Positions 16,895 through 50,100 of a DNA stretch of 64,000 nucleotides are shown piece after piece. The stretch is from Candidatus Omnitrophota bacterium (GTDB taxonomy: Bacteria; Omnitrophota; Gorgyraeia; Zapsychrales; Fredricksoniimonadaceae). Every line of letters begins with the position of its first letter. The stretch's first letter is position 1. The notes beneath the pieces are model-generated. The model worked only from the letters and a program-made list of their open reading frames with translations, ran no database searches and had not been told where the DNA came from. The stretch covers positions 46,463-110,462 of the forward strand of contig JAGWOI010000002.1 of NCBI GenBank assembly GCA_028870995.1, read 5' to 3'. Position numbers and translations under genes: made by a program.

Positions 16895-17752
16895 TTGCCT
16901 TTCGAAAACCGCAAACAACTTTTCATTATCATCGGCGCTGTGGCGGCCGGGATGGTGGCCGTTCTTTTGGCGAGCAATTACGTCAAGAACGCCATTCAAA
17001 GCCAGACCCGGGCCCTGGCCGAGCAATACGAAAGCAGACAAAAGGATATGGTGGCCCAGGTCCAGCAGCAAAGCCAGCAGCAAATGGCCCAGCTGGCCCA
17101 GGAATTGGAGCGGGTCAAGGCCCAAGAGGCCCAACAGGTACAGCAGCAAATGGCGGCACTGAAAGCCTCCCAGGAGCAGCAGATGCGCCTGATGCAGCAA
17201 CAGCAGCAGGCTGCTGCCGTCAACAAACAAGGGGCCAGGAAGCCCTCGCTGGCCTTGAGAACGCCGGTTGGCAAGCGCGCCGTGACCGTTAAGATCGACT
17301 CATTGTCTGCTGTCGGAGGATTGATCAATCCGGGCGATTTTGTGGATGTGATCGGTGAGTTGAATGTTCCCTCGCAAACTTCCGAAAAATTGACCGTAAC
17401 AGCCATGATCTTTCAGGACTTACAGGTGCTTGCGGTCAATACCAATGAAGAAGAGCTGGGGGCATACGACGATCAGCAGGCGGCCAATTCTTTAAAAATT
17501 ACCTTTGCTGTGGACCCGCAAGAGGCGGGCCTTTTGGAGTTTGCCAACAAGAACGGAACGTTGGAACTGGCATTACGGTCACCGGATGATACCGAACACA
17601 GGCTGGTCAAGGCCGATACTTGGAAAACCCTGGCGGACTACATCTTGAAGAACCAGGGGCTTAATATTGAAAACCCCGATGAAATTCCCGAAAATAAACC
17701 AGTGGAAAGCAAACCCATGATCCAGATTTTTAGAGGCGGCAAGGAACTTTGA
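16895..17752 (+). CDS. cpaB: Flp pilus assembly protein CpaB/RcpC
   Basis: TTG start with SD AGAGAGGG. N-terminal TM helix. SAF/RcpC-like region (SLSAVGGLINPGDFVDVIG...ELALRSPDD). Contains a Gln-rich coiled-coil insertion. Confidence 0.8.
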   Translation: MPFENRKQLFIIIGAVAAGMVAVLLASNYVKNAIQSQTRALAEQYESRQKDMVAQVQQQSQQQMAQLAQELERVKAQEAQQVQQQMAALKASQEQQMRLMQQQQQAAAVNKQGARKPSLALRTPVGKRAVTVKIDSLSAVGGLINPGDFVDVIGELNVPSQTSEKLTVTAMIFQDLQVLAVNTNEEELGAYDDQQAANSLKITFAVDPQEAGLLEFANKNGTLELALRSPDDTEHRLVKADTWKTLADYILKNQGLNIENPDEIPENKPVESKPMIQIFRGGKEL

Positions 17753-17757
17753 GGCGT

Positions 17758-19590
17758 ATGAAAAACAAGTTTTTAAAGAGGCTGTCCCTCGTCATGCTGG
17801 GCTTTGCGCTGACCGCCTTTTATTTGCCTCCGCTTTCAGCCGATGAGAATTTCACCATGGACTCCTCGACAACAGGAGACGTCGTTGATATGGTCTCCGG
17901 CGATATCCAGTCCGTCCCTGCCAATGGATTGATCCGGGTATCGGTGACCAATCCCGAGGTGGCCGACATCTCCGACGTGACAGACGACAAGGTTTCATTG
18001 ATCGCCAAGAGGGCGGGGTCAACGGTTTTGTTCATATGGGATGCCGCCGGCAAGCGCAGCGTCAAGGTGCGGGTGGCCGCCGAAGATCTTAATGCCCTCA
18101 AGGAAAGGGTGCAGAAGCTTTTGGAAGAAGCCAACATCAAGGGGGTTTCCGAAGATATCAATCTCGATATCGGCAAGGTCATCCTGACAGGCTCTTTGTC
18201 CAAGGAGGACAAAAACCGGATGATGGACGTCCTGCTGCCCTACAGCGATAATTTGATGAATCTCGTCAAAGAACAAAAAAATGAAGAGCTGATCCAGGTG
18301 GATATGCAGATTGTAGAGATCAACGTCAGCCTGGAAAAAACCCTCGGCATTTTGTGGGGGACATCTTCAGGAGGATCCTCTTCCACAGGCGGTACCAACA
18401 GCGGACAGATAAACCTTAATTACAGCGAAACCATTCCCGGCGGAGACAAATTCAAGGACCTCTTTAAGGTCGGTAATTTTACCCGCGGCTCGTCGCTGGA
18501 GGCTACGGTCAATGCCCTGGTCCAGGAAGGCAAGGCCAGGCTCATCTCCAAGCCCCGCTTGGTGGTGGTCAGCGGCAAGCCGGCGAGTTTTCTGGTGGGC
18601 GGCGAGATCCCGATCCAATCCACCACGGTCAGCACCACCGGCAGCACCTTGACCAATAACACAACCTACGCGGAATACGGTGTCAATTTATCGGTCACGC
18701 CCACCATTAAGGACGGGAAAATCGATGTTTTGCTTAATGTGGACATCCGCGACGTGGATTCGGCCACACCGATCTCCAGTTCGGGAGGCAATGTGGCTTT
18801 CGTCACGCGGACCGCGTCCACGGACCTGCTGCTGGACAATAGGCAGACTATTGCCCTGGCCGGATTGATCAAATATGAAGACAGCGTGACGATGACGGAA
18901 GTCCCGTTCCTTTCCAAGCTGCCCTTGCTGGGCGGATTTTTTAGAAACAGGAGCGAGCCCGCCGATTCCAATACGGAAATGATCATTATCCTGACCCCTA
19001 CGGTGCTGACGGATAAGAAATACGAGCACAAACAGTTGGTCATGCCAACACCCGAGGAGCGCAGCTCCTGGAACGAAATCGATGCGAAGTATGAACATGA
19101 ACCGATCGTGTCTAATTGGCCTCCATCCGTTCAACAGGCCAAGCCGTCTTCGGCAGAGATGCCGTCGTTTGCCCCCTCGTTCCCATTGGCGCCGCAATAC
19201 ACCGGGAATTCGACAACGGTGAACCCGCTGATGATCCCTCCTGTGGATACGGTGGGCCTTCCGGCCACCGCAGCCTATGCGCGCATGGTGCAGGAAAAGA
19301 TCTCCAGAGCCATTCTTTCTCCCCAGGTTTTGAAGGGCACCATGGGAGGCACGGTCAAGCTCAAGCTGCACATCCTTAAAGACGGGTCCCTTGATTCGGA
19401 AGAAGTGGTTCAGTCTTCGGGCAACAATACCCTGGATAGTGATGCCATGAGGGCCGCTAAAACAGCAGCGCCTTTCGCTGCTTTTACCCCCGAGATGGAT
19501 CAGCAGGACCTTGAGTTCACCGTTCCCATCATTTTTAACAGGTTGATTCCGGGAAACCAACCGGCGGAGAAGATCATTGCCTCGCATTAA
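17758..19590 (+). CDS. cpaC: Tad secretin CpaC/RcpA with a C-terminal TonB-C-like domain
   Basis: Signal peptide, BON/secretin_N-like region and secretin core (ARLISKPRLVVVSGKPASFLVGGEIPI). A Pro-rich spacer is followed by a TonB_C-like about 90 aa (KGTMGGTVKLKLHILKDGSLDSEEVVQSSGNNTLDSDAMRAAK...). ATG 17758 has a GAGG SD. The track start 17749 is an in-frame TTG. Confidence 0.8.
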   Translation: MKNKFLKRLSLVMLGFALTAFYLPPLSADENFTMDSSTTGDVVDMVSGDIQSVPANGLIRVSVTNPEVADISDVTDDKVSLIAKRAGSTVLFIWDAAGKRSVKVRVAAEDLNALKERVQKLLEEANIKGVSEDINLDIGKVILTGSLSKEDKNRMMDVLLPYSDNLMNLVKEQKNEELIQVDMQIVEINVSLEKTLGILWGTSSGGSSSTGGTNSGQINLNYSETIPGGDKFKDLFKVGNFTRGSSLEATVNALVQEGKARLISKPRLVVVSGKPASFLVGGEIPIQSTTVSTTGSTLTNNTTYAEYGVNLSVTPTIKDGKIDVLLNVDIRDVDSATPISSSGGNVAFVTRTASTDLLLDNRQTIALAGLIKYEDSVTMTEVPFLSKLPLLGGFFRNRSEPADSNTEMIIILTPTVLTDKKYEHKQLVMPTPEERSSWNEIDAKYEHEPIVSNWPPSVQQAKPSSAEMPSFAPSFPLAPQYTGNSTTVNPLMIPPVDTVGLPATAAYARMVQEKISRAILSPQVLKGTMGGTVKLKLHILKDGSLDSEEVVQSSGNNTLDSDAMRAAKTAAPFAAFTPEMDQQDLEFTVPIIFNRLIPGNQPAEKIIASH

Positions 19591-19840
19591 CCGGTTTATG
19601 CTGATCGTTGCGGCTTGCTTGATGCTTTTCGCCCCCGTGAAGGCGCAAGCGGTACAGGGCGATCTGGATGCTCAAATAGAAAAAGAATTTGTTCCTGTGC
19701 AGCCTAATGCCGAGGCCCAGTTTAATTCGGTGCCGTCGCTGGATGTCGAGAAAGAATTTTCCCCCTTGTCGGTGGACGCCGACAAAGAGTTCGCTGTGTT
19801 ACAGCCGGACGCAGAAAAGGAGTTTTCTCCCGCCCCTTGA
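19577..19840 (+). CDS. small secreted repeat protein with (D/E)KEFxP repeats
   Basis: Signal peptide LIVAACLMLFAPVKAQA, then four copies of EKEF[VSA]P. Function unknown. The start may be the internal ATG at 19598. Confidence 0.45.
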   Translation: MPRINRFMLIVAACLMLFAPVKAQAVQGDLDAQIEKEFVPVQPNAEAQFNSVPSLDVEKEFSPLSVDADKEFAVLQPDAEKEFSPAP

Positions 19841-19890
19841 AGGAATCAACAGCGACAAATTTGCAAAACGTGGTACAATAAAAAGATATT

Positions 19891-22043
<2,153 letters not shown>

Positions 22044-22047
<4 letters not shown>

Positions 22048-24278: not shown

Positions 24279-24434
24279 ATGATCCGACTCACGAGAAGCA
24301 CAAAGGCACAAAACTTAATCGAATATGCGATCGTCGTGGCCTTGATCTCGGCAGCGCTGGCGCTGTTGAGTACCTATGTGTTCCGTTCCGTCCAAGCCGA
24401 ACAGAAGATAGTTACTGAGGACTCCTTAAACTGA
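24279..24434 (+). CDS. flp: Flp-family type IVb prepilin (51 aa)
   Basis: MIRLTRSTKAQNLIEYAIVVALISAALALL... carries the Flp motif (small residue, then xxxEY, then a hydrophobic stretch). SD AGGTGAAGGA precedes it. It is below the 60-aa track cut-off, and the overlapping track ORF 24194..24418 is in another frame. Confidence 0.65.
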   Translation: MIRLTRSTKAQNLIEYAIVVALISAALALLSTYVFRSVQAEQKIVTEDSLN

Positions 24435-24456
24435 AAATATTCCTTTGGAGGGAATT

Positions 24457-24711: not shown

Positions 24712-24744
24712 AAACTATTGACAAGCTAATATTAGGAGGAATCT

Positions 24745-25113: not shown

Positions 25114-25149
25114 GCCTGAATCTCAACGATATATTTAAGGAGGAATCCT

Positions 25150-25482
25150 ATGTTGCAATATCTTAACAACAAACGTGGTCAAAGCTTCCTGGAGTATTCA
25201 GTGATGATCGTCGTGGTCGTAGGCGCGTTGCTGACCCTTCAGGTCTATATCAAACGCGGCGTACAGGGCCGCTTGAAGAGTGCGGCGGATGACATCGGCG
25301 ATCAGTATTCCGATGGCAACAGCAATGTGCTTAAGGTAACCGTCAGGAACAGCGATACCCAGCAGATATTCAATGCCGGGAATTCTTCGACAACGATGTT
25401 GAAACCGGAAACGACCAATACCACCGAGAACTCGTTGATCGTAAATACCCAGCAAGAATTCTGGGGCACCAAGCCGGAATAG
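25150..25482 (+). CDS. flp: Flp-family prepilin (candidate major pilin)
   Basis: KRGQSFLEYSVMIVVVVGALL. AGGAGGA SD. Followed by a strong hairpin. Confidence 0.75.
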   Translation: MLQYLNNKRGQSFLEYSVMIVVVVGALLTLQVYIKRGVQGRLKSAADDIGDQYSDGNSNVLKVTVRNSDTQQIFNAGNSSTTMLKPETTNTTENSLIVNTQQEFWGTKPE

Positions 25483-25489
25483 CGCATCA

Positions 25490-25519
25490 AGAAGAGGGGG
25501 ATGAAAATCCCCCTCTTCT
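25490..25519 (+). terminator. 12-bp perfect stem-loop (AGAAGAGGGGGA-TGAAAA-TCCCCCTCTTCT) without a U-tract
   Basis: Arms 25490-25501 and 25508-25519, 8 nt after the pilin stop. It may be a partial terminator or an mRNA-stabilising hairpin. Confidence 0.5.
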
Positions 25520-25540
25520 CTAAATATAGAGGACAAACGC

Positions 25541-25732
25541 ATGCGCGATAGACAAGGCCAAAGCCTGGTGGAATATATCCTATTGGTCACGGCCGTGACC
25601 GTGGTGGTGGTCCTGTTCACCACGGGCAAGGGCAAAGGATCTTTTCAAAATACCCTTAATCAGGTCTTTAATCAGACCACACAGGATATGCTCAACGCGT
25701 CTACTTATTTGCAACAGAACGCGGCGAATTGA
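25541..25732 (+). CDS. flp: Flp-family prepilin (63 aa)
   Basis: MRDRQGQSLVEYILLVTAVTVVVVLF. Confidence 0.7.
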   Translation: MRDRQGQSLVEYILLVTAVTVVVVLFTTGKGKGSFQNTLNQVFNQTTQDMLNASTYLQQNAAN

Positions 25733-25780
25733 AGTGCCCCATAAGCCATGCGTAAACGCAGCAAAGAAATGAGGCGGGGC

Positions 25781-26578
25781 ATGAACAATAAAGGGCAATC
25801 CATTCTGGCAGAACATGTGATGGTTTTTTTCGTGGTGATCGCCGCCATCACCGCCATTTCTGTTTTGGTGCAGCGCGGCCTGCAGGCCCGCATCCATGAG
25901 GCCCGGAATTTCGCCGTCGATTCCGTCATCAATGCCTGCGATATCAATTGCCTGAAGGCCACCGGGCGGATCCCCCACGAATACGAGCCTTACTATATGG
26001 TGACAACGGCGAATATTCAGACCAACGAGGCCCAAGCAGAGGGAACAACGACGGGGAACCCCCAGGCATTAGGGGTAAAGTACCTTACCAGCGAGAACAC
26101 ATCCACCCAAATAGGGTCAAATTCCATCCAGCTCCCTGCTATATGCAGCGGCCCCTACCCTCCGATATGTTGCCATGACGGCACGGGATGCCGCTCATGC
26201 TCACCAATTTCAGGTCATAGCTGCGGCCCAGACACTTGCGGAAATGCGAATGGCAGCGGGAGTTGTAATCCTGACGGGCCGCTAGGAGATCCTCATTCGG
26301 GAACCTGTGATACTTCGACCTGGCAATGCGACCCGTGTCATTGTCAAGTTTATACGGAATCGACCTTAGAAGGCATGTGTCCTGCAACCTATACGGCTGA
26401 CTGTGGAGCGGATTCATGCGGGCATGCCGACGCCTGCGGCTCCTGCGGTTCTTATACATGGCCATATGACGGAAAAACTTATACGACGTTCTGTTCTATG
26501 GGACGGTGTTGGTTTGTAAACCCTTATGACCCTGGTCATGGGTGGAATTGCGCCAATTGCGCCCATCCTTGTTTTTAA
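25781..26578 (+). CDS. Flp-like prepilin fused to a roughly 200-aa cysteine-rich C-terminal domain
   Basis: NNKGQSILAEHVMVFFVVIAAITA resembles a prepilin N-terminus. It shares LQARIHEA and HEYEPYYM with the 24745 pilin. The C-terminal half has more than 30 Cys (CSGPYPPICCHDGTGCRSCSP...CANCAHPC). ATG 25781 is in frame and preceded by GAGGCGGGG. Confidence 0.65.
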   Translation: MNNKGQSILAEHVMVFFVVIAAITAISVLVQRGLQARIHEARNFAVDSVINACDINCLKATGRIPHEYEPYYMVTTANIQTNEAQAEGTTTGNPQALGVKYLTSENTSTQIGSNSIQLPAICSGPYPPICCHDGTGCRSCSPISGHSCGPDTCGNANGSGSCNPDGPLGDPHSGTCDTSTWQCDPCHCQVYTESTLEGMCPATYTADCGADSCGHADACGSCGSYTWPYDGKTYTTFCSMGRCWFVNPYDPGHGWNCANCAHPCF

Positions 26579-26601
26579 AAGGTGCAAACGTGAGGAAGGG
26601 A

Positions 26602-26961
26602 ATGGTTTTCTCCCGGAGGGCACAGACGATATTGGAATACACGATGCTTGTGAGCATCCTGATGCTGGTGCTTTATTACATGGGTGCGGCCATCAAGCGC
26701 GGGGTGCAAAGCGTTGTCAAGGTGACGGCGGACCAGGTAGGCAACCAGCAGAACTCCGATCAGGATTTTACCAACCCCGAGACGGGATATATGGTGGGTT
26801 CCAATACGCAGATGCAGGACGCCCATAACGATTGGAATGCGGAAACGGGCTACATCAGCAGCGATGGGACCAGGCATTTTATGGCGACGTCAGGGTATAA
26901 TGAGTCGACGTACACCTCGACTCAGTCCATCACCAATGGGGGATTTACGCCCGCGCAATAA
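26602..26961 (+). CDS. Flp-like prepilin
   Basis: MVFSRRAQTILEYTMLVSILMLVL. SD GAGGAAGGG lies 3 nt before ATG 26602. The track ORF start 26542 overlaps the previous gene. Confidence 0.65.
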   Translation: MVFSRRAQTILEYTMLVSILMLVLYYMGAAIKRGVQSVVKVTADQVGNQQNSDQDFTNPETGYMVGSNTQMQDAHNDWNAETGYISSDGTRHFMATSGYNESTYTSTQSITNGGFTPAQ

Positions 26962-26979
26962 AGAGCAAGGACAAGGCCT

Positions 26980-27297
26980 ATGCATATTCGTCGAGGACAA
27001 ACGATTTTGGAGTACACGGTCATCATGATCATCATCATCGGTGTTTTGGTGGCCATGAAGGATTATATCAAGCGGGGCATTCAAGGCCGGTGGAAGGCCT
27101 CGGCGGACAATTTAGGCAGCCAGTACGACCCGCAATGGGTGAGTTCCAATATCCAATTCGCGGCACAGACGAATTCAACATCTATCGTACAGGTCACTCA
27201 GGCCAGCCTCGCTGGTGTCGAAGGGCAGTTGACGGCGCGTACAGATGCGACGAATTCTTTGGAAACAAAGACAGGAACTTCACAGGTAGGGAATTGA
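26980..27297 (+). CDS. flp: Flp-family prepilin
   Basis: MHIRRGQTILEYTVIMIIIIGVLV. Its stop overlaps the next gene's start (TGATG). Confidence 0.7.
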   Translation: MHIRRGQTILEYTVIMIIIIGVLVAMKDYIKRGIQGRWKASADNLGSQYDPQWVSSNIQFAAQTNSTSIVQVTQASLAGVEGQLTARTDATNSLETKTGTSQVGN

Positions 27298-35814: not shown

Positions 35815-36675
35815 ATGATCCTCATTGTTTCTTTGGCCTTATTATTCGCATCAGTTTACCTGCTGGTCGTCAACCTTGCCCCGCTGGCCGCTGCCAAATA
35901 CAACCAGATCAATGAAACGCAGGCCCAGTCGGTCGTCGGGAAGGTGGACCGGTACCTGCGCGAGGATGAAATCAAGAAGCTCTACCGTCTGACCGTATTT
36001 GGTCCGGTGGCCATAGGGATCGTCGGTTTTATCGTCTTTCCCGGGGATACCCATTGGGCAGGGCTTTTGATCGGTGCCGTCTGCGGGTTTATCCTGCCGC
36101 GCATGTATGTCAACCATTTGGTCAAGGGCCGCGCCAAAAAATTCGATGACCAGCTGATCGACGCCATCATGATCATGTCCAGTTCTTTCCGCGGAGGCTT
36201 GAGTCTGGTGCAGGCCTTTGAATCGGTTGCCGACGAGATGCCTGATCCAGCCAAAGGCGAATTCGGCATCGTTTTGGGGGAGAACAAAATGGGCGTGTCT
36301 TTGGACGAATCCCTTAACCGGTTTTACCGGCGCATGCCTTCTCCGGCCATGCAGCAGATGGTGACCGCCATTTTGCTGGCGCGCGAGACAGGCGGCAACC
36401 TGCCGGTCATTTTCTCACGCATCGTCAACAGCACCCGAGAACGCAAAAAAATAGAAAAGAACCTGCAGACCCTTACCCTTCAAGGCAAGATCCAGGCTCT
36501 TGTCATGACCGGCCTGCCCATATTTTTCTTTTTTACCGTCTCAGGATCGAACCCTCATTTTTTTGACACCATGCTTAATTCGGAGATGGGGCACAAACTT
36601 CTTATTATTTGCGCAGTCTTATGGATATTAGGGGCGTTAACCGTCATGAAAATATCGACGTTCAAGGATTTCTAA
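35815..36675 (+). CDS. tadB: Flp pilus assembly inner-membrane protein TadB
   Basis: 286 aa with the T2SF-like domain and TM pattern typical of TadB. Confidence 0.8.
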   Translation: MILIVSLALLFASVYLLVVNLAPLAAAKYNQINETQAQSVVGKVDRYLREDEIKKLYRLTVFGPVAIGIVGFIVFPGDTHWAGLLIGAVCGFILPRMYVNHLVKGRAKKFDDQLIDAIMIMSSSFRGGLSLVQAFESVADEMPDPAKGEFGIVLGENKMGVSLDESLNRFYRRMPSPAMQQMVTAILLARETGGNLPVIFSRIVNSTRERKKIEKNLQTLTLQGKIQALVMTGLPIFFFFTVSGSNPHFFDTMLNSEMGHKLLIICAVLWILGALTVMKISTFKDF

Positions 36676-36676
36676 T

Positions 36677-37585
36677 ATGGCCCTAGCCCTTTTGCTTTTT
36701 TTTCTGGCTGGTTTTGGTCTGATCATTGGGATTTGGCCTCTGGCCATCGATAACCGGCCAACATTAAAGATGTCCGATGATCCCTTTGCGGATTTAAGAC
36801 CGACGGGCGCGCCGGTTAAAAGGAAGGGGCTGGCGGCCGCATTCTCGGCAGTGACCGGCAAGCTGGCCATATTCAACCGGCCCCTGGCAGCCTCCTCTAC
36901 GGGCAGGCGCATGTTTAAGGACCTGTCCACCGCCCGGATCAACATGTCGGTCGAAGAGTTTTTTCTTCTTAAGGAGATCCTGGTAGGCGGCATGGTCCTG
37001 CTGGCTTTCAAGCTGGGCAGCGGCAGCGATTTCTTTACATTTTCTCTCTTGATGAGCATTGCCTTGGGCTACATGCTCCCGGAAATGTGGCTTAAATCGC
37101 GGATCAAGAGGATCAAGGATGATATTCTGAGGAATTTGCCCGATACTGTGGACCTGTTGGGGCTTTGCGTCAATGCCGGGCTGGATTTTATGATGGCGTT
37201 AAAGTACGTGGTCGAAAAATCAAAACCCACCGTCATTATTGACGAGCTAAGAAATATGATGCAGGAGATCAATGTAGGCAAGCCCAGAAGGGATGCCTTA
37301 AGGGACCTGGCCAAGCGCTATGACCTGCCTGATTTGTCCACCTTTTCCCGTACCTTGATCCAGGCTGACCGCATGGGAACTTCGGTTACAGAAGCGCTCA
37401 ACATCCTCTCTGAGGACATGCGTGAGGCCCGTTTCAGGAGAGGGGAAGCGTTGGCTCTAAAAGCCCCTTTAAAGATGATGATACCTCTGCTCTTTTTTAT
37501 TTTCCCTGTGGTGGCCATATTGGTTGCAGGTCCAGTATTCTTAGACTTCTTCCAAAACAATCCTCTCAAAAACCTTGGTCATTAA
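36677..37585 (+). CDS. tadC: Flp pilus assembly inner-membrane protein TadC
   Basis: 302 aa, a T2SF-like paralogue immediately after tadB. Confidence 0.8.
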   Translation: MALALLLFFLAGFGLIIGIWPLAIDNRPTLKMSDDPFADLRPTGAPVKRKGLAAAFSAVTGKLAIFNRPLAASSTGRRMFKDLSTARINMSVEEFFLLKEILVGGMVLLAFKLGSGSDFFTFSLLMSIALGYMLPEMWLKSRIKRIKDDILRNLPDTVDLLGLCVNAGLDFMMALKYVVEKSKPTVIIDELRNMMQEINVGKPRRDALRDLAKRYDLPDLSTFSRTLIQADRMGTSVTEALNILSEDMREARFRRGEALALKAPLKMMIPLLFFIFPVVAILVAGPVFLDFFQNNPLKNLGH

Positions 37586-37666: not shown

Positions 37667-37870
37667 TTAACATCTCCCGCTGGAAACGGTCTTATTCCTT
37701 TTATTGCTTCTAAAGCATAAATTTTGTTCCAAATCAACGTTTTTGGCTTAGAAAGCGCTTTCTATACTTTAATTTAGAAAAAATAATATCCCTTTTACAA
37801 TGAATTTTTATTATTTTTTCATTAAGGACAAAACTATTTGAAATATATGGGGTTATATCTCAATCTAAAT

Positions 37871-37899
37871 TTGCCAAAAGGTGGTCATCTGTATATAAT
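37871..37899 (+). promoter_or_regulatory. near-consensus sigma-70 promoter (TTGCCA, 17-nt spacer, TATAAT) upstream of the giant gene
   Basis: -35 at 37871-37876 and -10 at 37894-37899. Predicted TSS is near 37906. Confidence 0.45.
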
Positions 37900-37954
37900 A
37901 TGCTATACTTCAGGTGTCGACGACAAATCAGTCCCTTTGAAGCACCTGAAAACA

Positions 37955-38110
37955 TGAGCCAAGACTTGGAAAACACATCTGACATGCCCCAAGAGCAGAA
38001 GCAGAATTTTCCTGAAGCTCAAGAAAATTTTGCTGATTCCGTTGTTTTGGCCCCCCAAACACCTGCAGCAGACGCCACCCCTTTTGTCAGCCGCTTCAAT
38101 CAATGGATGA
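37955..38110 (+). CDS. possible 51-aa leader ORF overlapping the giant ORF start by ATGA
   Basis: MSQDLENTSDMPQEQKQNFPEAQENFADSVVLAPQTPAADATPFVSRFNNG. Its stop TGA 38108-38110 overlaps ATG 38107. It has no SD of its own, so this is speculative. Confidence 0.25.
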
Positions 38111-41100
38111 AGGTTATCGCTATAGTAGTTCTGGCGGCCTTTGTCCCTAATCAGGCCAGCTGGGCTTTTGGATATAACCCGTCCGTGCTTTACCGGAACC
38201 TGCCGGTTGCTCCTGTGCAGGATGAAGAAGGTATCGTCTTACCCCAACCGGCCATGCCGGGCGTTCAGGTTGCGGACAGCATGGAGTATTTGCTTAAGCA
38301 AATCCAGAACAAGCCCAAGCTGCGTCTGGAGCTTAACCTGAATGCCGGTTCCAAGGCGCACACCTTGGAAATCGATACCAAAACGACTTTTACTCCTGAC
38401 AAGATCACCCGGATTTCACAATGGCTGAAGACGCCCAATTTGAACGTGCTTAATTGCGGCGTGTATGCCCTGAAAGATATTTTAGAAGCCAACGGTATTA
38501 AGCGTTCCTTGCAGGAAGTTTCGGTGATGACCCTGTCCGTGGACATCATGGCGGACATCATCAAGGTGGGCGAGCCGAAATTAAAAACCACCCTTTTTGC
38601 CATCAACAAGACAGCCCAAGCGCTGGGGCTTAAGTACCAGAGCCTGAAGGTTTTGCCGCAAGATGAATTGAATCTGCCGACACCTTTTATTGCCCATTTT
38701 AAGAATGAGCATTTTGTGACGGTCCAGAAAGCCGTGGGCGGCGAAGTTTACTATACCGATCTTGATTATCCGCATATCGTCAAAGCTGGGGATTTCCTGA
38801 AAAATGCCGATGGGTTTGTTTTGGCTCAACCAACAGAAGGCATAACCGCTAAAGCCGTTCCCGAATCTCTGCAAGCCTTTGTTTGGGGCGATAAATGGCG
38901 CGACATGTCCCAGAACCTGCCGGGGATCGTGTCCGGAGCTCAGCTGGGCATTCAAATAGCCATCTTAGTTCTTAGGATTGTTTTGAGTTTTGTTCCGTAT
39001 GTGGGCACAGGCATCGAGTTTGCCATGTTTGCTTATGAAGTCAGTCAATTGGCCCAAGCCTTGGCTACCATCTGTGTCATGAAGGGCGCTTGCAGCCAGG
39101 ATGAAGCCTTTCTTCTAAGCACAGCCATTACAGCAGCTTTTACCTCGGGTTCAGTATTAGGTTTTGCCATGTCCATTGGAGAAGCGTATATGGACAAGGA
39201 AATTATTGAAGCCATCAACAGCGCGATCTGCCCTCATCCCAGCCAATGCAGTGATACGAGTTTAATCCTTGAGTCAGCGGCAGACGTGGCGGCCACCTCC
39301 GTTGCCAATGCAGCGGCAAACGCCGTGGCGAGTGCGGTTGCGGACGCGGTCAGCAATGCAGTTTCTTCCGGTTCCGGCACAGATCCTAATTCGGGCGGCC
39401 CTGGACCTTCTAATAATGGAAGTCCAGGAAGCGGGCCAAGTCAAAATCCTCCGGCCAACAACGCGCCGGCCTCTAATCCAGGATTAACCGGCCCGGCCGG
39501 AAGTCCTGTATCAAGCCCGACAAGCCCCACACCGACAACTACGCCGACGCCCCTGTGGGCTGACCTGCTCGGAGTAGGCAATAATTCCTCGTCTCCTTCC
39601 GTTGCCCGTCCGACCAATTTTTTTGAAGACTTTGGAGACAGGCTGGAAGCCTCTTTTTATCAGCAACTCCCGCAGGTGGTGGGCGACGTCGCGGGGATGA
39701 CGGCAAGGCTCATTGCCTATAAAGCATTCGGGGTTAAAGCCAATGATAATGTTTCCCAGGCGCTGGGGCTGGCTTTCAATGCCGTGGGTCAGTTAGCCGG
39801 AGAAGAGATTGATCATGAGATATCCTCAACAAACCCAAACAACCCATATCGCAATGGGATCAGCAGTCAGCAGCTTTGGGGGACGGTCATTAAGGCCTCC
39901 ATTGATTTGGGCATGGGGTTCGCGGCGGATGCGGCGATTGGCAAATATGACGATAAAAAGGCCAAGGAGAATGCCGCCTATGCCAATAACTATGCTTATC
40001 AACAGGCGGAGTTTTTCGGAATCGTAGCCTTGACTGCCAGCGCCGCCATGGCAGGCTACATGGCATTGACCACAGATGTGCCCGCAAATTCCGTGACAGG
40101 TAAGAAACCCGGGTTCTTGGATAAGTTTGGACTGGCCCTATTTGCTCCAGGGGAGTTGGCGGCGTCGGCTGTTACCACTGATATCAACGGCAAACCCGTT
40201 ACGGTCACTCAAAATATAGATAGCAATACTCCTTCAGTTTTAGGAAGCACGGCCGTCAATTTCGGCGGCATGAATTATGCCGTACAAAGCGTGGCACCCG
40301 GAACTCCTTATTCGGAGGTGTCAGGGACAGCGCCCGGATCCGGATTTACGGATGTTTGGCAAGTCGATCCTCAAACCGGCAAAAGCTTTCTTAAAGTAGA
40401 TGGGCTTGGCAATTACATGAACTTTATGCAGGTCCAGGGGCAAATGACAGGATGGACTCCTGAAAGGGTCGCAGGCGATGACATGTCCTGGAATGAGATG
40501 AAAAAGAATAATAAGGCGGTCTATAATGCTCCAGGTCATTTTGACGGTCTTATTTCATATACGCCGGCCACCCCCGCTGCTTCCGATAGTGAATTGCATG
40601 ACCAATTCCTGCTTGGCGAATTCGAATCCCGCTCTATCGGGATGCCCGGCCTTGCCCCTGATTATATCGCTGGACAATTTCAGGAAGCGGCAAACGAGGG
40701 GGCATTTAATGCATTCTCGTTAGGTATGTATGCAATTGCTGACAGGATGGCCAAAGAATATACTCCAACAGGAGTAGACCACTTGCAAAACGGGATAAAT
40801 GTCTATAGTACCGGGGATGCAGCTGGCGGCACCGTGGTTGGCGGAGATTATAACGCGCAGACCAATACTTTAACAGTTGCCCCAATGAGAGATTTCTTGT
40901 TAAGCATAGGGCTTCCGGATTTTCAGTTTGCTGCTACCGAGAGCGGTCAGCTTGCTATTGGCCAGGCCCATAAGGATTTGAATAAGGGGCTTTATTTTGA
41001 AGGCGAGACATCTGGCGGAGAGCAGGTAAATCAAAGTTTAAATGGCCCCGAGAAAACTTTAGAAAGGGGAACCCTTCAACCCTCAAATAGCAATATTCAA

Positions 41101-44100
41101 ATGTTTTCTCCGGCAATGTTTGCCGGATCTTTGCCTGCGGCAGGTTCTAACAATGAGGAACCCACAACGATCAAGCCGGACTCTAATCAGGAGGAGCCTA
41201 CGGCGATCAAGTCAGACGAGGGAACAAATACTTTGCAAGGAGCGCCTCTAAACGGGTCGGCTAACAAAGCCGAACAGAATCCCGCTCAAAACACCAATGA
41301 CCAGCAGAAGCCGTGGACAGTTTATCTTTCACCCGTACAAAACAATTCAACTGGGGCTCAGCAGGGAGTAGCTGTTCCCACAGCGGACGTTTTGGAGGGC
41401 AAGGTCAATCCTTCCGATCCTTTGTCCATCGCAAATTATATTGTACATGGCGGAGTGGTGTTCATGGTCAATTCTCCGGGCTCCACTTCAGACGCTCCGT
41501 TTTCAATCATTTCAGGGTTCGCTTCATTTAATACGCCCGCAGGAGGCAGGGGAACTTTAGCGGTTGTCAATGGCGGCCTTGATTATATGCCATTCAATGC
41601 TTTTTATGGGGCAACGGGCATGACAACTAAGGTGATTTCCGGCAATGGCGCTGCGGGCGGTTCCCAACAGACCACGGTATCCGTGCCGGGAGCGCCGATT
41701 GCTCCGGGCGCCGGCGGTTTCGGTCTTTTGAACAACGGTTCTTCTGAGGGGCAAGACATCAACTCTCCCGAGACACAATCTCCTTCAACCAGCACCACTC
41801 AGTCTGCGCAAGGAAACAATGGTCAGGCGACCTCAAATGTCGGTCAGGGCATTCAAGCCCTCGGAGAAGTGGCATCTTTGTTTGGGCTTCCGGGGGGTAG
41901 TTTAATATCAAGTATCGGTGCAGGAATCAACAATGTCATCGCCGGCGAAGCGACACAATCGGCGTCGCCCAACACCACCACCAAGGGAATACTTCAGACT
42001 TTTGGAAGCGGCATGGCGGAGAATGGCTCTCCTATCATTGGCGGGCTAGTGGCGGCATTAGGCAATAAGATTGACCAGGAAGGCGCTTCCAATACCGGCA
42101 CATCAGACAAAGAAGTTTTGGCGGCTCTGGAGACGGCGAAAAAGAGCGGCGGGCTTATCCCTCCGACCGATGCCCAGATCAAGGTGGCATTGGCCAAGGG
42201 ATTCATTCAACTGGATGCTGAGGGGAACCTTCCTTATGTATACAGACCATGGGGCTCTTCTCAAGCTGGTCTTGCCCCGCAGGCCGGAGGGTTAAATAAT
42301 CCATATGCCGCCAGCGGCCCGACTTTTTGGGGAACTGTTGCCAACGATTGGGCCCATCCCTGGGCCAATGTGGATCAGATTAAAGCGCTGAGAACACAAT
42401 ACTTCCCTCAGGGAGCAACGGACCAACAATTAGTTTATGTAGCTACAAGCGATGATCCGCAGGCAGTGGCCGCTAGAAATAAATTTGTCGGCGCCGGGCT
42501 AGAATCATTCCGGTTGAGCAATGGCACTGAAGTGGCGCTTAAGGGGGCTGTTCTTAATTTTAATCCGGGAGACACTGGAGAATACCTTGCGGCCCTTCCG
42601 TCAACCGGGAATGCGTATGCCTTTTATGGCAACTACAATTTTAAAACGCAGGGAAACCTAAACGGCGTTTCACAAATAGTGCCGGTCCTTGTCAGCAATG
42701 AATGGCAGCAGGGATTAGGCCAGCCTGGAACAGAGGGACAGGGCGGTCTAGTGGCAGCAAATGTTCAACAGGCGCTTTATAAAATGGAAGGTGCAAGTGC
42801 TGCCAAGAATCAGATTGTCAATGCAACGGTTCCCGTTAATATGCTCGCGGGGACACAGATTCCTGAGCCAACGCCCGGCCTTACGGTTGATTACAATTCA
42901 GGCAATGTCCTGGCCGCACCTGGTATTGTTCAGGAGGCAAACTCGTTCGGGACAATGACAACAATGAACGGAAAAACATCCTCTCCGTTGGCGCTGGACT
43001 CTTATGCCATAGCAGGCAACGGGAAGGATTTGATTGTCGGCAATGGGCAGCTTCCCGGCAAAGCCTTTGTAGGCTATCCAGGACTGCAGAACAACGATGC
43101 TTCCGTAGGTGAGAAAACCAGCTATACCACCAGTGCTAACTTTTCCTTAGCGCCGACAAACAGCCGTGCAGTGGGTGCGGGAGAAGGATATTTCCAATTC
43201 GCCATCCAGGGCATAAATTGGGCAAAGCCGGATGTCGCTCAAAAGGTCGGCGTGCAGGACATCAACTTTACTCCCGGCGCAATGGTAGAGCGGACTAACG
43301 GGGCATACGAATTTCCATTATTACCGGGCAAGACGGTTACCGGCAAGGGGGTTTTGCAGTACATTCTTCCAACAGCCCACAATAGTTTCGGGATTAAACC
43401 CTTAACAGGTGCACCGGAAACTTTTATTAAAAACACTGCTTTCGAGGCAGTTGTGGCTCCCGCTGACAAAACCATCATCAACGGCAACATTGATGCCAAT
43501 GTTAAGTTTGGATACGGCTGGAACGGAACTTCAAACGCTTGGGATGTATCTGCGGCTCAAAGTCAAGTTGATAAAAATTCTGTATTGACCAGCGGAGTCG
43601 ATCACCGCACGGCACTTGCCCGGCTTTGGTCTTCCCAGGGAGCTTGGGGTTTTGTTGCGACACCCACGGATGACTCAAGTACTTTTATTGTTCACGCTTC
43701 CGGCCCGGCGCAAGCTTTAACCGTGACACCGTCATTGCCATCGGCCGTGCCGGCCAATCCTCCTGCACAACAACCCTATCAAGGCATCCGGCTAGGAGAT
43801 GTTTATCAAATCTACGGAGCAGTGGATTTGAATCCTTCCGCGGACAGGATCCTTTTGGGGACAGGGACACAGCTGCCAATAGTATTAATGAGGAATGCCA
43901 AAGGAGACATAGAGGCAACCTCCATGCTGGGAGCGCCGGGCACGACGCTGCATATGCCGGCCGGTATGCAGGTGGGGGATGTGGTTGTGGCCAACACGGA
44001 TCATAATCCGGCGTCGAACAATGAGATGGCGGTGGCGGTTGGTCTTGATAACAAAAATATGGTTACCAAGACGTATACTGGCGAAGGGATGAGTTTTGTA

Positions 44101-47100
44101 AATGCGGCTTTCCAGAATATGCATGCAAGCGTTAAAGATATTCAAAATAACTCTGCTTTAGAGACGGTAACCGGCCAGTATAAATTAGGAGTTACACTAA
44201 ACAACAACGGTCAGTTCTTCTTGAATCCGAAGGCGTCGGATGCATCGAAGCTTAACATTACCGACAACGCACATACGTTAAAGGCGGCGTTCGGTCTTGA
44301 TAAGAACGGTGCCTTTTATGTGACGCCGGTGTTTGGCAAGGATGATGTTCTGTATCATTCTTCCGGCCCGGCACAGGCCTTGCTGCCGTCAGGTTTACCC
44401 AGCGATTCATCAGCACCCTCTTCTTCAATAACACCATATCAGGGCATCAAGCTGGGGGATAATTACCAAATTAATTTGGTTAAAGATGAAAATCCATCTG
44501 TTGAAAAGATTTTGTTGGGTGAAGGGACACAGTTGCCGATAGTGTTGATGAAGAATGCCAAAGGAGACATAGAGGCAACCTCCATGCTGGGAGCGCCGGG
44601 CACGACGCTGCAAATGCCGTCGGGAGTGCAGGTCGGAGATTTGGCGATTGCGAATAAGGACCTGACGGTGGCGGTAGGTTTGGACAGCAGGGACATGGTT
44701 ACAAGAACGTATACAGGAGAAGGTTCTAGTGTCGAAAACGCTCAGGGCGGCCAGATTGCATGGACATTGTCTAACGGACATTTTCAAGTAGATTTACTTA
44801 CCCCCGCTTTACAGCAGGCTTTGACGCAGGCCAAGGGTGAAGCAGCCGATGAATTAAAGAAGAATGGCAAAGACCTTACTTGGCTTAACGGCCAAATCGC
44901 CTCTTACGAAGACCAATTAAGCAAGCTTAATCAGGATGTGGCAACACAGATAGGCCGCTCCTGGATTAATCCTAAAGGATGGGTTGATAATTCGAGGAGC
45001 CAAAGAGACGCTCTCGCCCAAGGATTGCAGCGATTGTATATGATGAAATTTGCTTTGACTATGTCCACGTCTGATTTGCTGGATATGCAAAAAGATTTAG
45101 GCGATAAACGGTACTACACGGTCCCGGGTGCCGTTATTGATGACACATTAAAACTCAAAGCGGTCAATGATATTTTGCAAACGGGAACGCCGCAGTCCCA
45201 AGTAATAGCTGCGTATTTAAAAGTACAGCAGAATAACGACCGTACCGTTGGAGAGCTTAGTTATTTTGCAGATTCCCAAAATAAATTGGCTGAATCGGGT
45301 GGCGATCACTTGATACCTCTTGGCGCCAATCAATATGAATATCCCTTGCTGTTTAAAAAGGGTATGGATAACCAAATTAGCGATTTTAAAAACGGCATGG
45401 GCCAGAAGCAAGATGATCTAACGGCACTCGTTAATATTTATAATTCCAACAAATCTTCGCTGACACCGGAAGTGCAGAAGATGGTTGAATCTTTGATAAA
45501 GAATACAGGGAAGCTAATTAGCGATATAAATACAGAAAATACTAAAGGAGGCGAGAATGGCGATGTTAATTTTGCCGCCATTTTGCAGACCAATGGATGG
45601 AGAACCTTTTGGAACAGCCGTAAATTTGATTATAACTATGACCCTAATTATGAACCGCTATCGGGAACAGGGAGATTTATAGGAACGATGTGGAATGGAG
45701 TCAAGGGTGGCGTAAGCTGGGTGGGTACTCAGATAGGAATTACGGGTATTAATGGGACCTGGGACTACCTGGTTAATGGTGAAAATAACTACGGAAATTA
45801 TTGGCACGCCTCGAACGAAACAGCTGCCGGAATTGCCACAGGGGACATACAGACATGGTCTCCTTGGGGAACTATTAAATCAGGCGTGACTTATGTGGCC
45901 GGCGTGCCCACATGGCTTGTTAATAGGCAAACCGGAAAGCAGGTTTTTGAATTAGCTTCACAGATGCCGACCGGAGAATATGATCCCTTTGCCGATGCTT
46001 ATAATAAAGGCGGGGCCTGGAAAATTGACTATTACGCAGGACATGCCAGTGAAGTTGTCTTAGAGACCGTTACCGCCGCCAGAGTCATGAGATTGGGGGC
46101 GCTTGGTTCGCTCACTCCCGCCGGTACACTCGCTGCGCCTACAGGAGCATTCTGGGGAACATTAGGGTTCGCCGAAGCTACCGGGTTAGGGAGAATGGCA
46201 TGGCAAGACCATAAAGGGGAAGGGCCTGTTAGTTCGGAAGAACTAAGCAACAATACTTTAGCTACCGTCATTGCTCCGGTGGTATTAGGTAAATTAACGG
46301 GGGCTATTAATTCGACCTATGGAGCGGCTCTGGCTAACACGGCCACCGGGAGATTTATAAACACGGTTATAAGCCCGCTAACAGAAACAGCCGGCGCCGA
46401 CGGGCAAATCATTCCCATGACCGCAGGTACGGCCTTGAAAAATGTTGCTATCAGCACAGGGACAGTCGTTGGGGGTGGTTTGGTATTGGCCAACGCTGGG
46501 ACAATGATAGGAGGGAACGGGCCGCTTACTTTAAAACAAGACGCTAAACTTGCTGGAGCATTGGCCTTGGTTAATACGGGAAGAATCGGCGCCGGGGCAT
46601 TGGCTAATGGTCTCACAGGAAAACTTGCAGGTCAAGGATTCTTAAAAGGAATAACAGCAGGACTTTCGCAAGAGATAAAGAGCGGTTTGGCAAATGCTGC
46701 GTTCACTAATCGGGCCTTATTTGGAGCGGCAAATTCACTGAATTATGGTGTGCAATTAGGCAGCGCGGCCGCTTCCTGGGGCATGATCAGCAATGAATGG
46801 CAAAATCCGCAGGCAGGATTTGGAGACATGATGTCTGTTGGTTGGAAAGATTTCAAACCGGCCTTTTTAACGGGTACTGCTGTTGGCGCATACTCTTCCC
46901 TTTCTTCTCCAACACTTGGTCTTGGCAATAAATTCTCTTCTCAAGTCGTAAAGTTCTTTTCGCCTTCTTCCAGGTGGAGCTATTTAACGTGGCCGACCCT
47001 GGCTGTAGGGGGCGAAGCATTATTGAATGGAAAAAATGCCACCGCCAAAGATTACATCGATGTGGCTTCTATGGCGCTAGGCGCACGCTATCTGGCAGGA

Positions 47101-50100
47101 GGCTTTGCAGCGGGGACGGCGGCAGGAGGCAGCGAAAAGGTGACAGGGTTTTATAAGTTTGGCGCCTATCTTACTAATCCTGAAATAAAAGGACTTACCT
47201 TGGCCAATGTTGGAAGATATTCCGCCTTAGCCGCTACGGGCGCAGTGGCCAATATTGCCAAGGATGCATTGGTTGGAGAATTTGAGCATGCAACAAACAT
47301 TTCGTTGGGCAATAACCTGGATATGTATGTAAAAAGAAACAACGAGGGCAGGATCGTGGCCCGCAGTGCCGTCGCAGCTCCGGGATATAATTTCGAATCC
47401 GACAGTGGTATCGGTGGTGAGCATTGGGACCGGCAGCTGGAAGCTTCTGCTTTTCGCGGCGCTTTTTGGGCGACAATGGCCGGATTGGCAGTTAAAGATG
47501 CAGGTAATATAGCAGGGAATTTCGAAAACAAGTTTGGTCTTGGGAAGATGGAAATGGCAGATTCTTCAGCCCAGCCTGCATCAACTATGGAAGGGCTGTT
47601 TGACAAAATTGCGATTAACCCGGCGGAACGGTTTGGTGCCCATGGCGCTTGGGGAGGTTTAAAATGGATACCCATAGGAGTTCAGTTCCCTGTTTACACC
47701 GGTGTTTATAAATCCGTGATTTTCGGTATAGAAAATAGATATTTGCCCAACGGCACTTTGCTCAACTTAGAAGACAAATCGGTTTCTCCGGATGAAGTTC
47801 AAACAAACTCTGGCGAGACGGCAACAGGTTTGGTCAGGATGTTTGACAGGGGAAGCTGGAGCCTTACCGACAAAGCAAAGGCAAGTCTATGGAACGCCTT
47901 TGTAACCGCCCCTGAAAGCGGGGTGACTTTGAATCCCATGATTGCGGCAACAACCTTGGCTAGAGAACCCGGTGGTCCTGCAAGTGAATGGAGAATCGGA
48001 TTACGGGACACACTGCAAAATAGCGGCTTGAGCGAACCATTGGGATTGGCTAAGGTGGCCGCGGTGGTAACAGGAATAGATGCCGCCATGGACATGACAT
48101 CTACAAGGCATTGGGTTGTCGCCAATCCGAAGTATCCCAACGAAGTTTATACGGTTAATGAGAACATTTCCACCGGGTTTGGCCCGGATACAGGTAATCC
48201 TTTCAGCGAAAGAAGCATCGGCAGTTGGGCTGGGCTGATCTTGGCCATGAAGCCATCGGCGGTATTAAGTAAATCCGAATATGCCATGGACCTTGCCGTC
48301 AAGCAAGCAAACGGCGGAGAACACGGCAGGGCGATAGAAACCCTTGATAATGCCATGGAAAGTCTTCCGCTGGAAAAACAGGCCCCGTTACAAAATTTAA
48401 GATATAACATCGCCCGCAACCAGGACGAACAGGTCTTTCAGGCCGGCAAAGGCAGGACAGCCGGTGTCAATGAAGCCGAATTAGTAAAGCCTTTGGAGCA
48501 AAATGCTGCCGAAAAGCAGTTAAACAACTATATCACCCAATTAAGAGCTTCCGGCAATAACGATTTAGCCGACCAGATGGAGGCAACGAAACAAAACGCG
48601 AACAGCCAAACATATTACAACCGGGCCATAAGCCTTGCCCAACAGGGCTATTTTAAAGCGGCCGATGATTATTTCAATCTTGCCGACGAGTCTTTGACAA
48701 AAGCCAGAACAGTCGATTCCCAAAATGGCAGCAAGTATTACCTGCCGCAAATGCAGATCATGCAGGGAAGATTGGAAAGCTTGAGGGTCCAGCAGCAAGG
48801 ATTGGAAAAGCCTTCCGTTGAATTAGCCGGCAGGATCGGCAAGGCGGCGGATGCCATCGACCAGTTTGTCAAGCAAGGCCTGGCATCCCAGGATGCCGCA
48901 ACCAGAAAAGTTTTCCAGAACATAAGCAGCAGTATAGAAGCAGGCCGGATTGCGGACAGGGCGGACATGATGATTAGATCCGGCTCGACAATAGACGCTG
49001 CCGGTTTATATGAAAAAGCCAGGGCGCTCGATCCGGACAATGCCCGGTATTATTTCTTGCGCGAATCGCAGGTCCGGGAGAAGCAGGGCGGGAAAGAAAA
49101 CCAGGCAAAAGCCATTGATTTGCTCAACAAAGCCGCTGATTTAACTGAAAGCGGCCAATGGTTGAAATCCAATGTCCGTTCTTATGAAACTTTCCGTGCG
49201 GCACAAAAAGAGATGGAATTGAATCCTAATGATTTGCAGGCGGCCGGCCGGCTTGACCAGGCACGCGATAAACTTGTCAGCGAGTTGACCAAGAAAGTCA
49301 ATGCAGCCCCCGAGGGAATACGCAACGGCATGGATAGATTTTTAGTGTCGGTTCTTCGCGAAAAGGCAGAGGCGCATTTGCAAAGAGGAGAATTTAATAA
49401 ATATTTCGATACTAGGCTTGAAATTTTTAACCGTGAGAATGAGGTTGGAAATGCCAGCGCCGCCGCTGATTTTGCCAGGTCGGCAGCCATCAAAGACACC
49501 GTAGACCGTTTATTAAGCAAGTATCTCAAGTCCGCCGTAGAAACGCCCGTGCAAGCCATAGAAACCCCGCAAGCAGCCGAGACGGCCAAGACATTAAGAG
49601 AAACAATCAGCACAGTGAAAGATAAAAAAGATATTTCCAGCGCCAGGTCATTGATTAAGGCGCTGGATGATTATTTGGGACAAAACGAAAGCCAATTGAA
49701 AACAACGGCGGGCCGTGAACTCATCAATCGAGCTACGGACATATTGACGAATATGAGCCAAGCCATGGCAGACAGTTCAGGAGTTAAGATGGAAGAGGCC
49801 ATGAATAAGGCCCCGGAAAATTCTATCGACAAGGCCAGGGCCGCGGAATCGTTGGCTAGAATTGCCATTTGGCAGGAAGCCATAAAAACACCGACAGCGA
49901 GCGGTTTAAAAGCAGGTAAAAGCAGGGTTACCGGATTGATCGATCAGGCCAAGAGAATGTATGAGGCAGCAAAAGATACAAACGGTATTAAGAGAATACA
50001 AGCACTAAGGGGTATGGCCGATGAAGGGTTTAATAATGCCGACCAGAGGCTAAAGACCGGATTGACAGGTCTTAGGAATGAAGTTCGGGTCATTATGGAA

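Follow-up and report, generated by a model that had tools for sequence, protein, structure and literature searches.

What is a pilin with a large cysteine-rich extension doing in the Tad locus of an Omnitrophota bacterium? The question is raised by a gene at 25781..26578 on the + strand of the 64,000-nucleotide stretch analyzed here (Candidatus Omnitrophota bacterium, contig JAGWOI010000002.1, positions 46,463 to 110,462; hereafter the window). A first-pass annotation had read this gene as an Flp-like prepilin joined to a cysteine-rich domain and supposed that it was a tip or minor pilin with an adhesive head. The first part of that description stands, given that seven further Flp- or class III-type genes lie beside it in a Tad locus and that the same fusion recurs in two other genomes. 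As to its role, the gene probably, if only just, encodes a modular, low-abundance (minor or tip) pilin of the Omnitrophota Tad/type II secretion system (T2SS)-like type-4-filament machine. This pilin would carry an orphan disulfide-rich head, referred to below as the tail because it is C-terminal.

The gene is complete, stop codon included. A single unbroken open reading frame (ORF) encodes 265 amino acids, beginning MNNKGQSILAEHVMVFFVVIAAITAISVLV, and the product is 100% identical to the NCBI entry 'MAG: hypothetical protein KGK03_01375 [Candidatus Omnitrophica bacterium]', where MAG denotes a metagenome-assembled genome. An alternative in-frame ATG at 25748 would lengthen the product by 11 residues to 276. 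The methionine of MNNKGQ is kept in all orthologues, several of which have a stop one to three codons 5' of it, so 25781 is the likely start. A Shine-Dalgarno-like GAGGCGGGG stands just 5' of this ATG (25771..25779, +), and the in-frame codons upstream of the start in the orthologues read RRG, indicating a conserved purine-rich ribosome-binding site rather than coding sequence. The next pilin gene downstream has a ribosome-binding site of its own.

Alignments and a profile search divide the protein into two modules. The first, the pilin head (residues 1-115; 25781..26125, +), is common to at least 175 proteins, and the orthogroup that they form is confined to the Omnitrophota; the family statistics on length, cysteines and motifs given below cover the 123 members examined. 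The head opens with a putative class III prepilin signal (25781..25870, +), consisting of the leader MNNKG, then QSILAEH and 20 hydrophobic residues. The N-terminus is as the first-pass annotation had quoted it, MNNKG followed by QSILAEHVMVFFVVIAAITAISVLV. The signal motif M[ND][NK]KGQ-x4-E[YH] is present in 120 of 123 members, as is a glutamate at +6 from the leader glycine (G-Q-x4-E), the query included. In the seven paralogous pilins of the cluster the glutamate is at +5 (G/A-Q-x3-E), so in the orthogroup it lies one residue farther from the glycine. Histidine replaces the tyrosine after this glutamate in the query and in 26 of the 120 members. Farther along, the C53-x3-C57 pair (ACDINC; 25937..25951, +), a candidate disulfide, precedes the YEPYY motif (25982..25996, +). 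The C-x3-C pair is found in 121 of 123 members, and YEPYY is invariant in the orthogroup and present also in the paralogue encoded at 24745. The kinship with the latter that had been read from common motifs was confirmed by BLASTP, in which the two proteins share 36% identity over 81 amino acids (E=1e-13), including QR.LQARIH and YEPYYM.

The second module is the cysteine-rich tail (residues 116-265; 26126..26575, +). The whole protein contains 24 cysteines, C53 and C57 in the head and 22 from C122 to C264, rather than the more than 30 first reported. Since these 22 fall between residues 122 and 264, the cysteine-rich part spans about 145 residues (143-150) and not roughly 200. The CxxC, CC and CxC arrangements described were all recovered, with four, one and one occurrences, respectively. 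Cysteine makes up 15% of the tail (22 in 143 residues), far above chance; the seven other Flp-like paralogues have none, and the adjacent giant ORF has 6 in 8,732 residues. The tail also contains 7 histidines and 13 aromatic residues, and it is rich in glycine, proline, serine and threonine. An internal repeat is evident in unit 1, C-x7-CGPDTCG-x4-SGSC (26198..26266, +), and unit 2, CP-x6-CGADSCG-x4-CGSC (26378..26446, +), which match at 9 of 15 positions (BLASTP, E=4e-4).

Two full-length homologues share this architecture. P0002 has 245 amino acids and 51% identity to the query at 100% coverage, and P0003 has 293 amino acids and 42% identity. Identical copies of P0002 were recovered on 10 contigs, which derive from several samples. 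A 359-kb contig has it in exactly the corresponding position of a locus that is syntenic gene for gene (peptidyl-prolyl isomerase [PPIase], RcpC, secretin-TonB_C, TadZ/A, DUF192, pilins, large proteins, TadB/C), and the gene for P0003 sits within an equivalent pilin array. The three long tails measure 127-173 amino acids and have 22-24 cysteines, 16 of them in invariant columns. They share the junction QLPxxC.GP.PP.CC.DG.GC, and in each the unit C-x7-CGxDxCG-x4-(C/S)GSC occurs in two copies. The tail is alignable among these three proteins only. Individually, the tails have 22, 24 and 22 cysteines; the two extra cysteines of P0002 appear together, and in P0003 the two head cysteines have been lost jointly. 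This even parity and paired gain and loss, in a tail with aromatic residues and plentiful Gly, Pro, Ser and Thr, favor disulfides over metal binding.

The long forms are rare, at 3 of 123 members, but not isolated from the rest of the family. The remaining members are 127-172 amino acids long, so the 50-90 amino acids that the first-pass annotation took as the norm for Flp pilins do not apply to this orthogroup. Past the conserved QLPPxC, sequences become hypervariable, and most stop within 11-36 residues with one further cysteine, terminating in QLPPxC-x4-10-C. The tails form a series of 11-54 amino acids with 2-8 cysteines (a few, P0071 and P0091, have 53-54 residues and 6-8 cysteines), to which the three long tails are added. 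Two short forms, L010/P0045 and L012/P0013, end after the first four cysteines of the long tail. The cysteine total is even in 120 of 123 members. Because every member ends in a small cysteine loop, the long tail is an extreme and rare expansion of a variable cysteine region found throughout the orthogroup. The short orthologues are complete genes without the tail, with the next pilin gene immediately after them.

Between the query and P0002 the tails are more alike (55% identity) than the heads (46%). The closest heads to each long form belong to short forms, at about 60% identity, so that by head sequence the long forms are not each other's nearest relatives. This pattern could reflect repeated loss of the tail, exchange of modules between lineages, or faster evolution of the head in the long forms. 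A neighbor-joining tree of 13 heads had pointed to the long tail as ancestral, an idea abandoned once the 123 members placed the long forms as divergent heads with short-form nearest neighbors.

Two orthologues are aberrant. In that at L011:6001-6459 a C-terminal segment (NNEATQINSRSTQLQPECA) is repeated exactly, which makes the cysteine count odd; the repeat is either a genuine tandem duplication within the variable tail or an artefact of assembly. That at L017:6001-6234, from the long-read MAG MFD01476, ends after 77 amino acids, directly past YEPYYLQ, which may point to a pseudogene or to an error in sequencing. Ten related loci from a GTDB genome scan all have the Omnitrophota-type locus. 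The records containing L009, L011, L012 and L014 are titled 'uncultured Planctomycetales bacterium', a label that is probably coarse or outdated.

Rates of divergence provide further evidence about the company that this pilin keeps. When the window was compared with L010, a close relative, identity was 86% for TadZ/A, 70-84% for the five upstream pilins and 68-70% for the two small downstream pilins. It was 52% for the query head and 52-62% for the large cysteine-rich proteins encoded downstream. The same ranking was obtained when L001 was compared with five other loci. The three large cysteine-rich proteins are the fastest evolving in the locus, with 33-62% identity where TadZ/A has 83-95%. 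By this ranking the query groups with the fast-evolving cysteine-rich downstream proteins and not with the conserved small pilins.

The surrounding genes identify the machine to which the pilin would belong. From 15.8 kb, the locus encodes in order a SurA-like PPIase, RcpC/CpaB, secretin-TonB_C, TadZ-TadA, DUF192, an HTH_3 regulator, a 351-amino-acid protein, eight Flp-like proteins (24279-27297), three large cysteine-rich proteins, TadB and TadC. The components expected of a tad locus, namely a TadA ATPase, TadB/C, an RcpA secretin and RcpC/CpaB, are therefore all present, and they are syntenic in L001. Pfam scans place the main Tad machinery block at 16895..22047 (+). It comprises RcpC/CpaB (16895-17752, +; Pfam RcpC, 1e-23), the secretin with a C-terminal TonB_C domain (17749-19590, +; Pfam Secretin, 8e-38), which also has a T2SS-T3SS_pil_N domain, and the fusion of a TadZ-like ParA/MinD domain with the TadA ATPase (19891-22047, +; Pfam T2SSE, 2e-59). 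The TadB-like and TadC-like platform proteins, both with a T2SSF domain, are encoded at 35815..37585 (+). Two of these proteins are fusions. In the RcpA/CpaC-type secretin, TonB_C lies at residues ~508-597, a fusion that is unusual among Tad secretins and is found also in L001, and the TadZ-TadA fusion of 718 amino acids is fused likewise in L001 and L010. The 351-amino-acid protein (23028-24083, +) has only weak transposase-type helix-turn-helix matches at its N-terminus and a proline-rich linker. It holds the same position in all syntenic loci, with 54-61% identity, and may be a locus-specific regulator. The locus lies within ~10 kb of the replication-origin genes parB, parA, yidC, dnaA, dnaN, gyrB and gyrA (971-12984).

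In the pilin array, five cysteine-free Flp-like genes precede the query (24279-24434, 24457-24711, 24745-25113, 25150-25482 and 25541-25732, all +) and two more follow it (26602-26961 and 26980-27297, both +). The first of them encodes 51 amino acids and is the most Flp-like in size, which makes it a better candidate for the major subunit. A GC-rich 12-bp hairpin occupies the spacer 3' of the 110-amino-acid pilin gene (25491..25518, +; free energy -27 kcal/mol, z=-6.8). Equally strong hairpins of unrelated sequence are found in the same spacer at L001:9603-9750, L004:709-850 and L008:408-552, in each case between a pilin gene of ~110 amino acids and one of ~63-72 amino acids, and the z-scores at the four loci range from -4 to -10. 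The hairpin may be an attenuator or terminator, or an mRNA-stabilizing element, dividing the upstream pilins from the downstream genes, the query included. Its position would fit attenuation between abundant upstream and scarcer downstream pilins.

Downstream of the array are the three large cysteine-rich proteins, for which no match was found in Pfam or NCBIfam. The first (27297-29480, +; 727 amino acids) has 30 cysteines and the N-terminus KGQAITELAVFG, whose KGQAITE is TadE-like. The second (29730-32471, +) has 926 amino acids as an ORF and 914 from the likely ATG start; it contains 50 cysteines and the motif CGEDICGNSCGSC, and its pilin-like N-terminus, KKGQTALILVLL (KKGQTALIL), is without the conserved glutamate. 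The third (32497-35442, +; 981 amino acids) has 64 cysteines and a Sec-type signal peptide. Directly 3' of the Tad locus, a giant stop-free frame begins at 37804 and runs off the end of the window (37804..64000, +; more than 8,732 codons). With its 6 cysteines, a Peptidase_C39-like match near the N-terminus and a DEAD (SecA-like) match, it looks like an Omnitrophota giant gene.

A locus of this type has been described before. A conserved locus upstream of Omnitrophota giant genes, called type II secretion-like, was reported to contain gspD-, gspE- and gspF-like genes, rcpC, a Rotamase_2 PPIase and many small class III-signal-peptide genes, followed by the giant gene (West-Roberts et al., 2023; bioRxiv 10.1101/2023.11.21.568195), and it has been discussed as a Tad complex (Seymour et al., 2023; PMC10066038). 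The present locus is the same in content, with its PPIase, rcpC, gspD/E/F-like genes, small class III genes and giant gene. In a term search of the two papers, cysteine was not mentioned and pilins were mentioned only in passing. While the locus type is already described, the cysteine-rich pilin is not, and these accounts include neither its short and long forms nor the large cysteine-rich proteins.

Within this setting, a modular minor or tip pilin would work as follows. A prepilin peptidase would cut off the leader, and the hydrophobic helix would insert into the filament core. Once in the periplasm, the tail would adopt a compact fold containing about 11 disulfides. Head and tail would then be displayed on the exterior of the filament or, given their bulk, at its tip. 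There the tail could touch an external partner that varies, for which the surface of a prey or host cell is the most plausible candidate, possibly acting jointly with the three large cysteine-rich pilin-like or secreted proteins encoded downstream. The suggestion of a minor or tip pilin with an adhesive head draws only indirect support from the fast evolution of the query, its place downstream of the conserved hairpin and the co-located cysteine-rich pilin-like proteins. Hints of a minor pilin in particular are the strong hairpin between the query and the upstream pilins, whose position is kept in four loci, and the glutamate at +6.

A number of observations count against this proposal. The query had no Pfam match at E<=1, PF04964 included, and none in NCBIfam, and the matches of its paralogues to Flp_Fap (PF04964) and Class_IIIsignal (PF04021) were weak and below the gathering thresholds; against PF04964, those at 24745, 25541 and 24279 scored 16.5-19.5 bits, where the cut-off is 32.2. 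No peptidase A24 (prepilin peptidase TadV/CpaA) was matched among the real ORFs of at least 150 amino acids scanned in the 64-kb window. A clear U-tract is missing from the hairpin, which could have a function other than attenuation. With three long-tail sequences, the statistics on tail conservation are thin. The AlphaFold2 models were unusable, with pLDDT (predicted local distance difference test) values of 38.7 for the full protein (8-sequence alignment) and 43.6 for the tail (3 sequences), and the compact disulfide-rich domain is accordingly deduced from composition and cysteine parity only. Neither a Dsb-like gene nor one for VKOR turned up within the 64 kb of the window, and many Omnitrophota are anaerobes (PMC10066038), in which extracellular disulfides are less expected. 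Finally, expression, processing, incorporation into a filament, location at the tip and adhesion are all inferred from the sequence.

The main rival explanation, although rather unlikely, is that the query is a pseudopilin of a secretion machine. In this case a short periplasmic pseudopilus would export the giant protein or the 981-amino-acid Sec-dependent cysteine-rich protein, and the tail would be a tip piece that engages cargo or the secretin in the manner of GspK, not a prey-binding head. The name type II secretion-like given by West-Roberts et al. to a locus conserved upstream of giant genes is in keeping with this, as is the position of the giant ORF directly after TadC. Moreover, the many pilin-like proteins of graded size, including the 926-amino-acid protein without the glutamate, recall the set of T2SS minor pseudopilins. 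However, the hallmarks of the locus are those of Tad and not of Gsp systems, namely RcpC/CpaB, a TadZ-like ParA, two T2SSF proteins and a secretin with T2SS-T3SS_pil_N. In addition, the rapid divergence and the recurrent presence and absence of the tail would suit a variable external ligand better than a conserved internal partner.

Two further alternatives concern the nature of the tail. The first-pass annotation had left open whether the domain was stabilized by disulfides or by metal, and the evidence of parity favors the former over the latter. A metal-binding Cys/His cluster (Zn, Cu or Fe-S; metallothionein-like), whose role in an anoxic habitat would be to stabilize the head or to bind metals or minerals, is accordingly improbable. 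Such a cluster could be built from 22 cysteines and 7 histidines within ~145 amino acids, in the CxxC, CC and CxC arrangements counted above. One histidine (GH.CG) is invariant, two of the three long forms share the CAHPCF end, and both the anaerobic habit of many Omnitrophota and the want of a Dsb system in the window favor this possibility. Against these points, the cysteine count is even in nearly the whole family and in all three long tails, with gain and loss in pairs, and the pilin export route delivers the protein to an extracytoplasmic compartment. The 13 aromatic residues and many Gly, Pro, Thr and Ser are unlike metallothioneins, which have few or no aromatics, and no metallothionein or zinc-finger family was matched even at E<=10.

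The other alternative, slightly less probable again, sees the two CGxDxCG...CGSC units as divergent Kazal-like domains, in which case the pilin would display protease-inhibitor modules. The sole and marginal match in a PDB profile search, which found no credible family for the tail, was to the Kazal inhibitor SPINK7 (2leo_A, E=0.055). The spacing C-x7-C-x10-C-x2-C, which is the Kazal C2-C5 spacing, occurs in unit 2, itself weakly Kazal-like, and in unit 1 of P0002. This was, however, one matched chain among the many Kazal chains in the PDB. The Pfam Kazal models were silent at E<=10, and hhalign gave a probability of 11% against a small Kazal alignment typed by hand, so a Kazal identity was not upheld. 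Neither unit has the signature C-x7-C-x6-Y-x3-C-x2,3-C, in that His or Asn stands in place of its conserved tyrosine and the motif is interrupted by an extra cysteine.

Other searches for relatives of the tail gave a similar result. The three long tails matched no family in Pfam, even at E<=10, or in NCBIfam. A full HMMER search of 1.84 billion representatives with the tail profile returned P0002, P0003 and P0009 only, and a word-indexed search with the tail alone returned P0002 only. P0009 is a 719-amino-acid protein of G/S/T/N-rich tandem repeats, and its match was judged to be compositional. Copying of the tail from the C-terminal end of the neighboring 926-amino-acid protein was considered and likewise rejected; the alignment scored 39.7 bits in BLAST uncorrected for composition, yet 26 of 300 composition-matched shuffled tails scored equally, and the two have only the short CGxDxCG..CGSC motif in common. 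The knottin- or metallothionein-like architecture for which the first-pass annotation had recommended looking was therefore not found, and no known cysteine fold could be assigned from Pfam, NCBIfam, the PDB or the representatives searched.

Codon composition distinguishes the two modules. The GC content at third codon positions of the tail and head, respectively, is 0.47 and 0.68 in the window (26126-26575), 0.36 and 0.57 at L001:10355-10735, and 0.51 and 0.59 at L004:1462-1983. In all three long forms the tail value is thus low, below both the head and the neighboring genes, with very high GC at second positions.

The weakest alternative, that the long ORF is an artefact in which a frameshift, read-through or assembly error has fused a pilin gene to unrelated sequence, might be prompted by the rarity of the long form and the lower third-position GC of its tail, but it is effectively refuted and a frameshift fusion excluded, because two further genomes, one of them with full synteny, encode the same one-frame head-plus-tail protein, giving three independent assemblies of different samples with 16 invariant cysteine columns and a conserved junction, while P0002 recurs identically on its 10 contigs, the short forms L010 and L012 keep the first four tail cysteines and the next pilin gene has its own ribosome-binding site.

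The Omnitrophota are uncultured, ultra-small and suspected of being predators or parasites, and the Tad/T2SS-like locus beside their giant genes is one of the few conserved clues to cell contact. Evolving faster than its neighbors and occasionally endowed with a large orphan head that is probably rich in disulfides, the pilin is a concrete candidate for the component in contact with the partner cell, and it is a small, expressible protein for binding tests. A bolder proposal, which we regard as a long shot, is that the tail is a previously unseen disulfide-rich fold that arose by duplication of the CGxDxCG...CGSC unit, and that the ultra-small, possibly predatory Omnitrophota use it on their Tad-type filaments as an exchangeable head for receptor binding. 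If so, the pilin and the adjacent cysteine-rich giant pilin-like proteins would be a host-range determinant of the giant-gene-associated machinery. These considerations are tempered by the fact that the concept of modular pilins exists already, that the long form, known from three sequences, is very rare and that no fold or function has been assigned.

Among known systems, the query most resembles the Flp/Tad (type IVc) pilins, such as Flp1 of Aggregatibacter actinomycetemcomitans and PilA of Caulobacter (PF04964). Like these, it begins with what may be a prepilin signal, in the form of a short basic leader ending in glycine, a pair of glutamate and an aromatic residue, and a hydrophobic helix, and it is encoded in an array of paralogues within a locus of RcpC/CpaB, RcpA-type secretin, TadZ, TadA and TadB/C. 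In contrast to the Flp pilins, which have ~50-90 amino acids, the query has 265 and its orthogroup 127-172. It also differs in the glutamate at +6 and not +5, the lack of a PF04964 match, the head extension of globular size and the cysteine-rich tail. The TadE, TadF and TadG pseudopilins are larger pilin-like proteins encoded 3' of the flp genes, with a supposed role in priming or capping the filament. The 727-amino-acid neighbor has a TadE-like N-terminus, but neither the query nor its neighbors match a TadE or TadG model, and the paralogues of the query's head are clearly the small Flp-like genes and not the TadE-like ones.

Type IVa pilins, such as PilA of Pseudomonas and PilE of Neisseria, have a C-terminal disulfide-bonded D-region. 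Like this region, the hypervariable C-terminal segment of the orthogroup is bracketed by paired cysteines. The pilin class and fold are nevertheless different, and the loop is expanded in the query to ~145 amino acids with 22 cysteines, being long in three members.

The closest precedent for the architecture is provided by modular type IV pilins with grafted adhesive modules, for example PilB-vWA (von Willebrand factor A) and PilC-lectin of Streptococcus sanguinis and CofB of enterotoxigenic Escherichia coli (Raynaud et al., 2021; PMC8179133). As in these proteins, a pilin module is followed by a separable C-terminal module, orthologues without the module exist, and the proposed place is at the tip, where a ligand would be bound. 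The modular pilins of that survey have the IPR012902 N-methylation signal of the type IVa/T2SS class, while the query is Flp/class III-like and had no match in Pfam or NCBIfam to an N_methyl-type (IPR012902-like) signal. Furthermore, the grafted modules are recognizable domains (vWA, lectin, beta-sandwich), whereas the tail of the query matches no known family. Because the survey was based on IPR012902 and the terms 'Flp' and 'Tad' are absent from the paper, it did not address Flp-type pilins. Overall, the Omnitrophota gene would extend the idea of the modular pilin from the type IVa/T2SS class to the Flp-like pilins.

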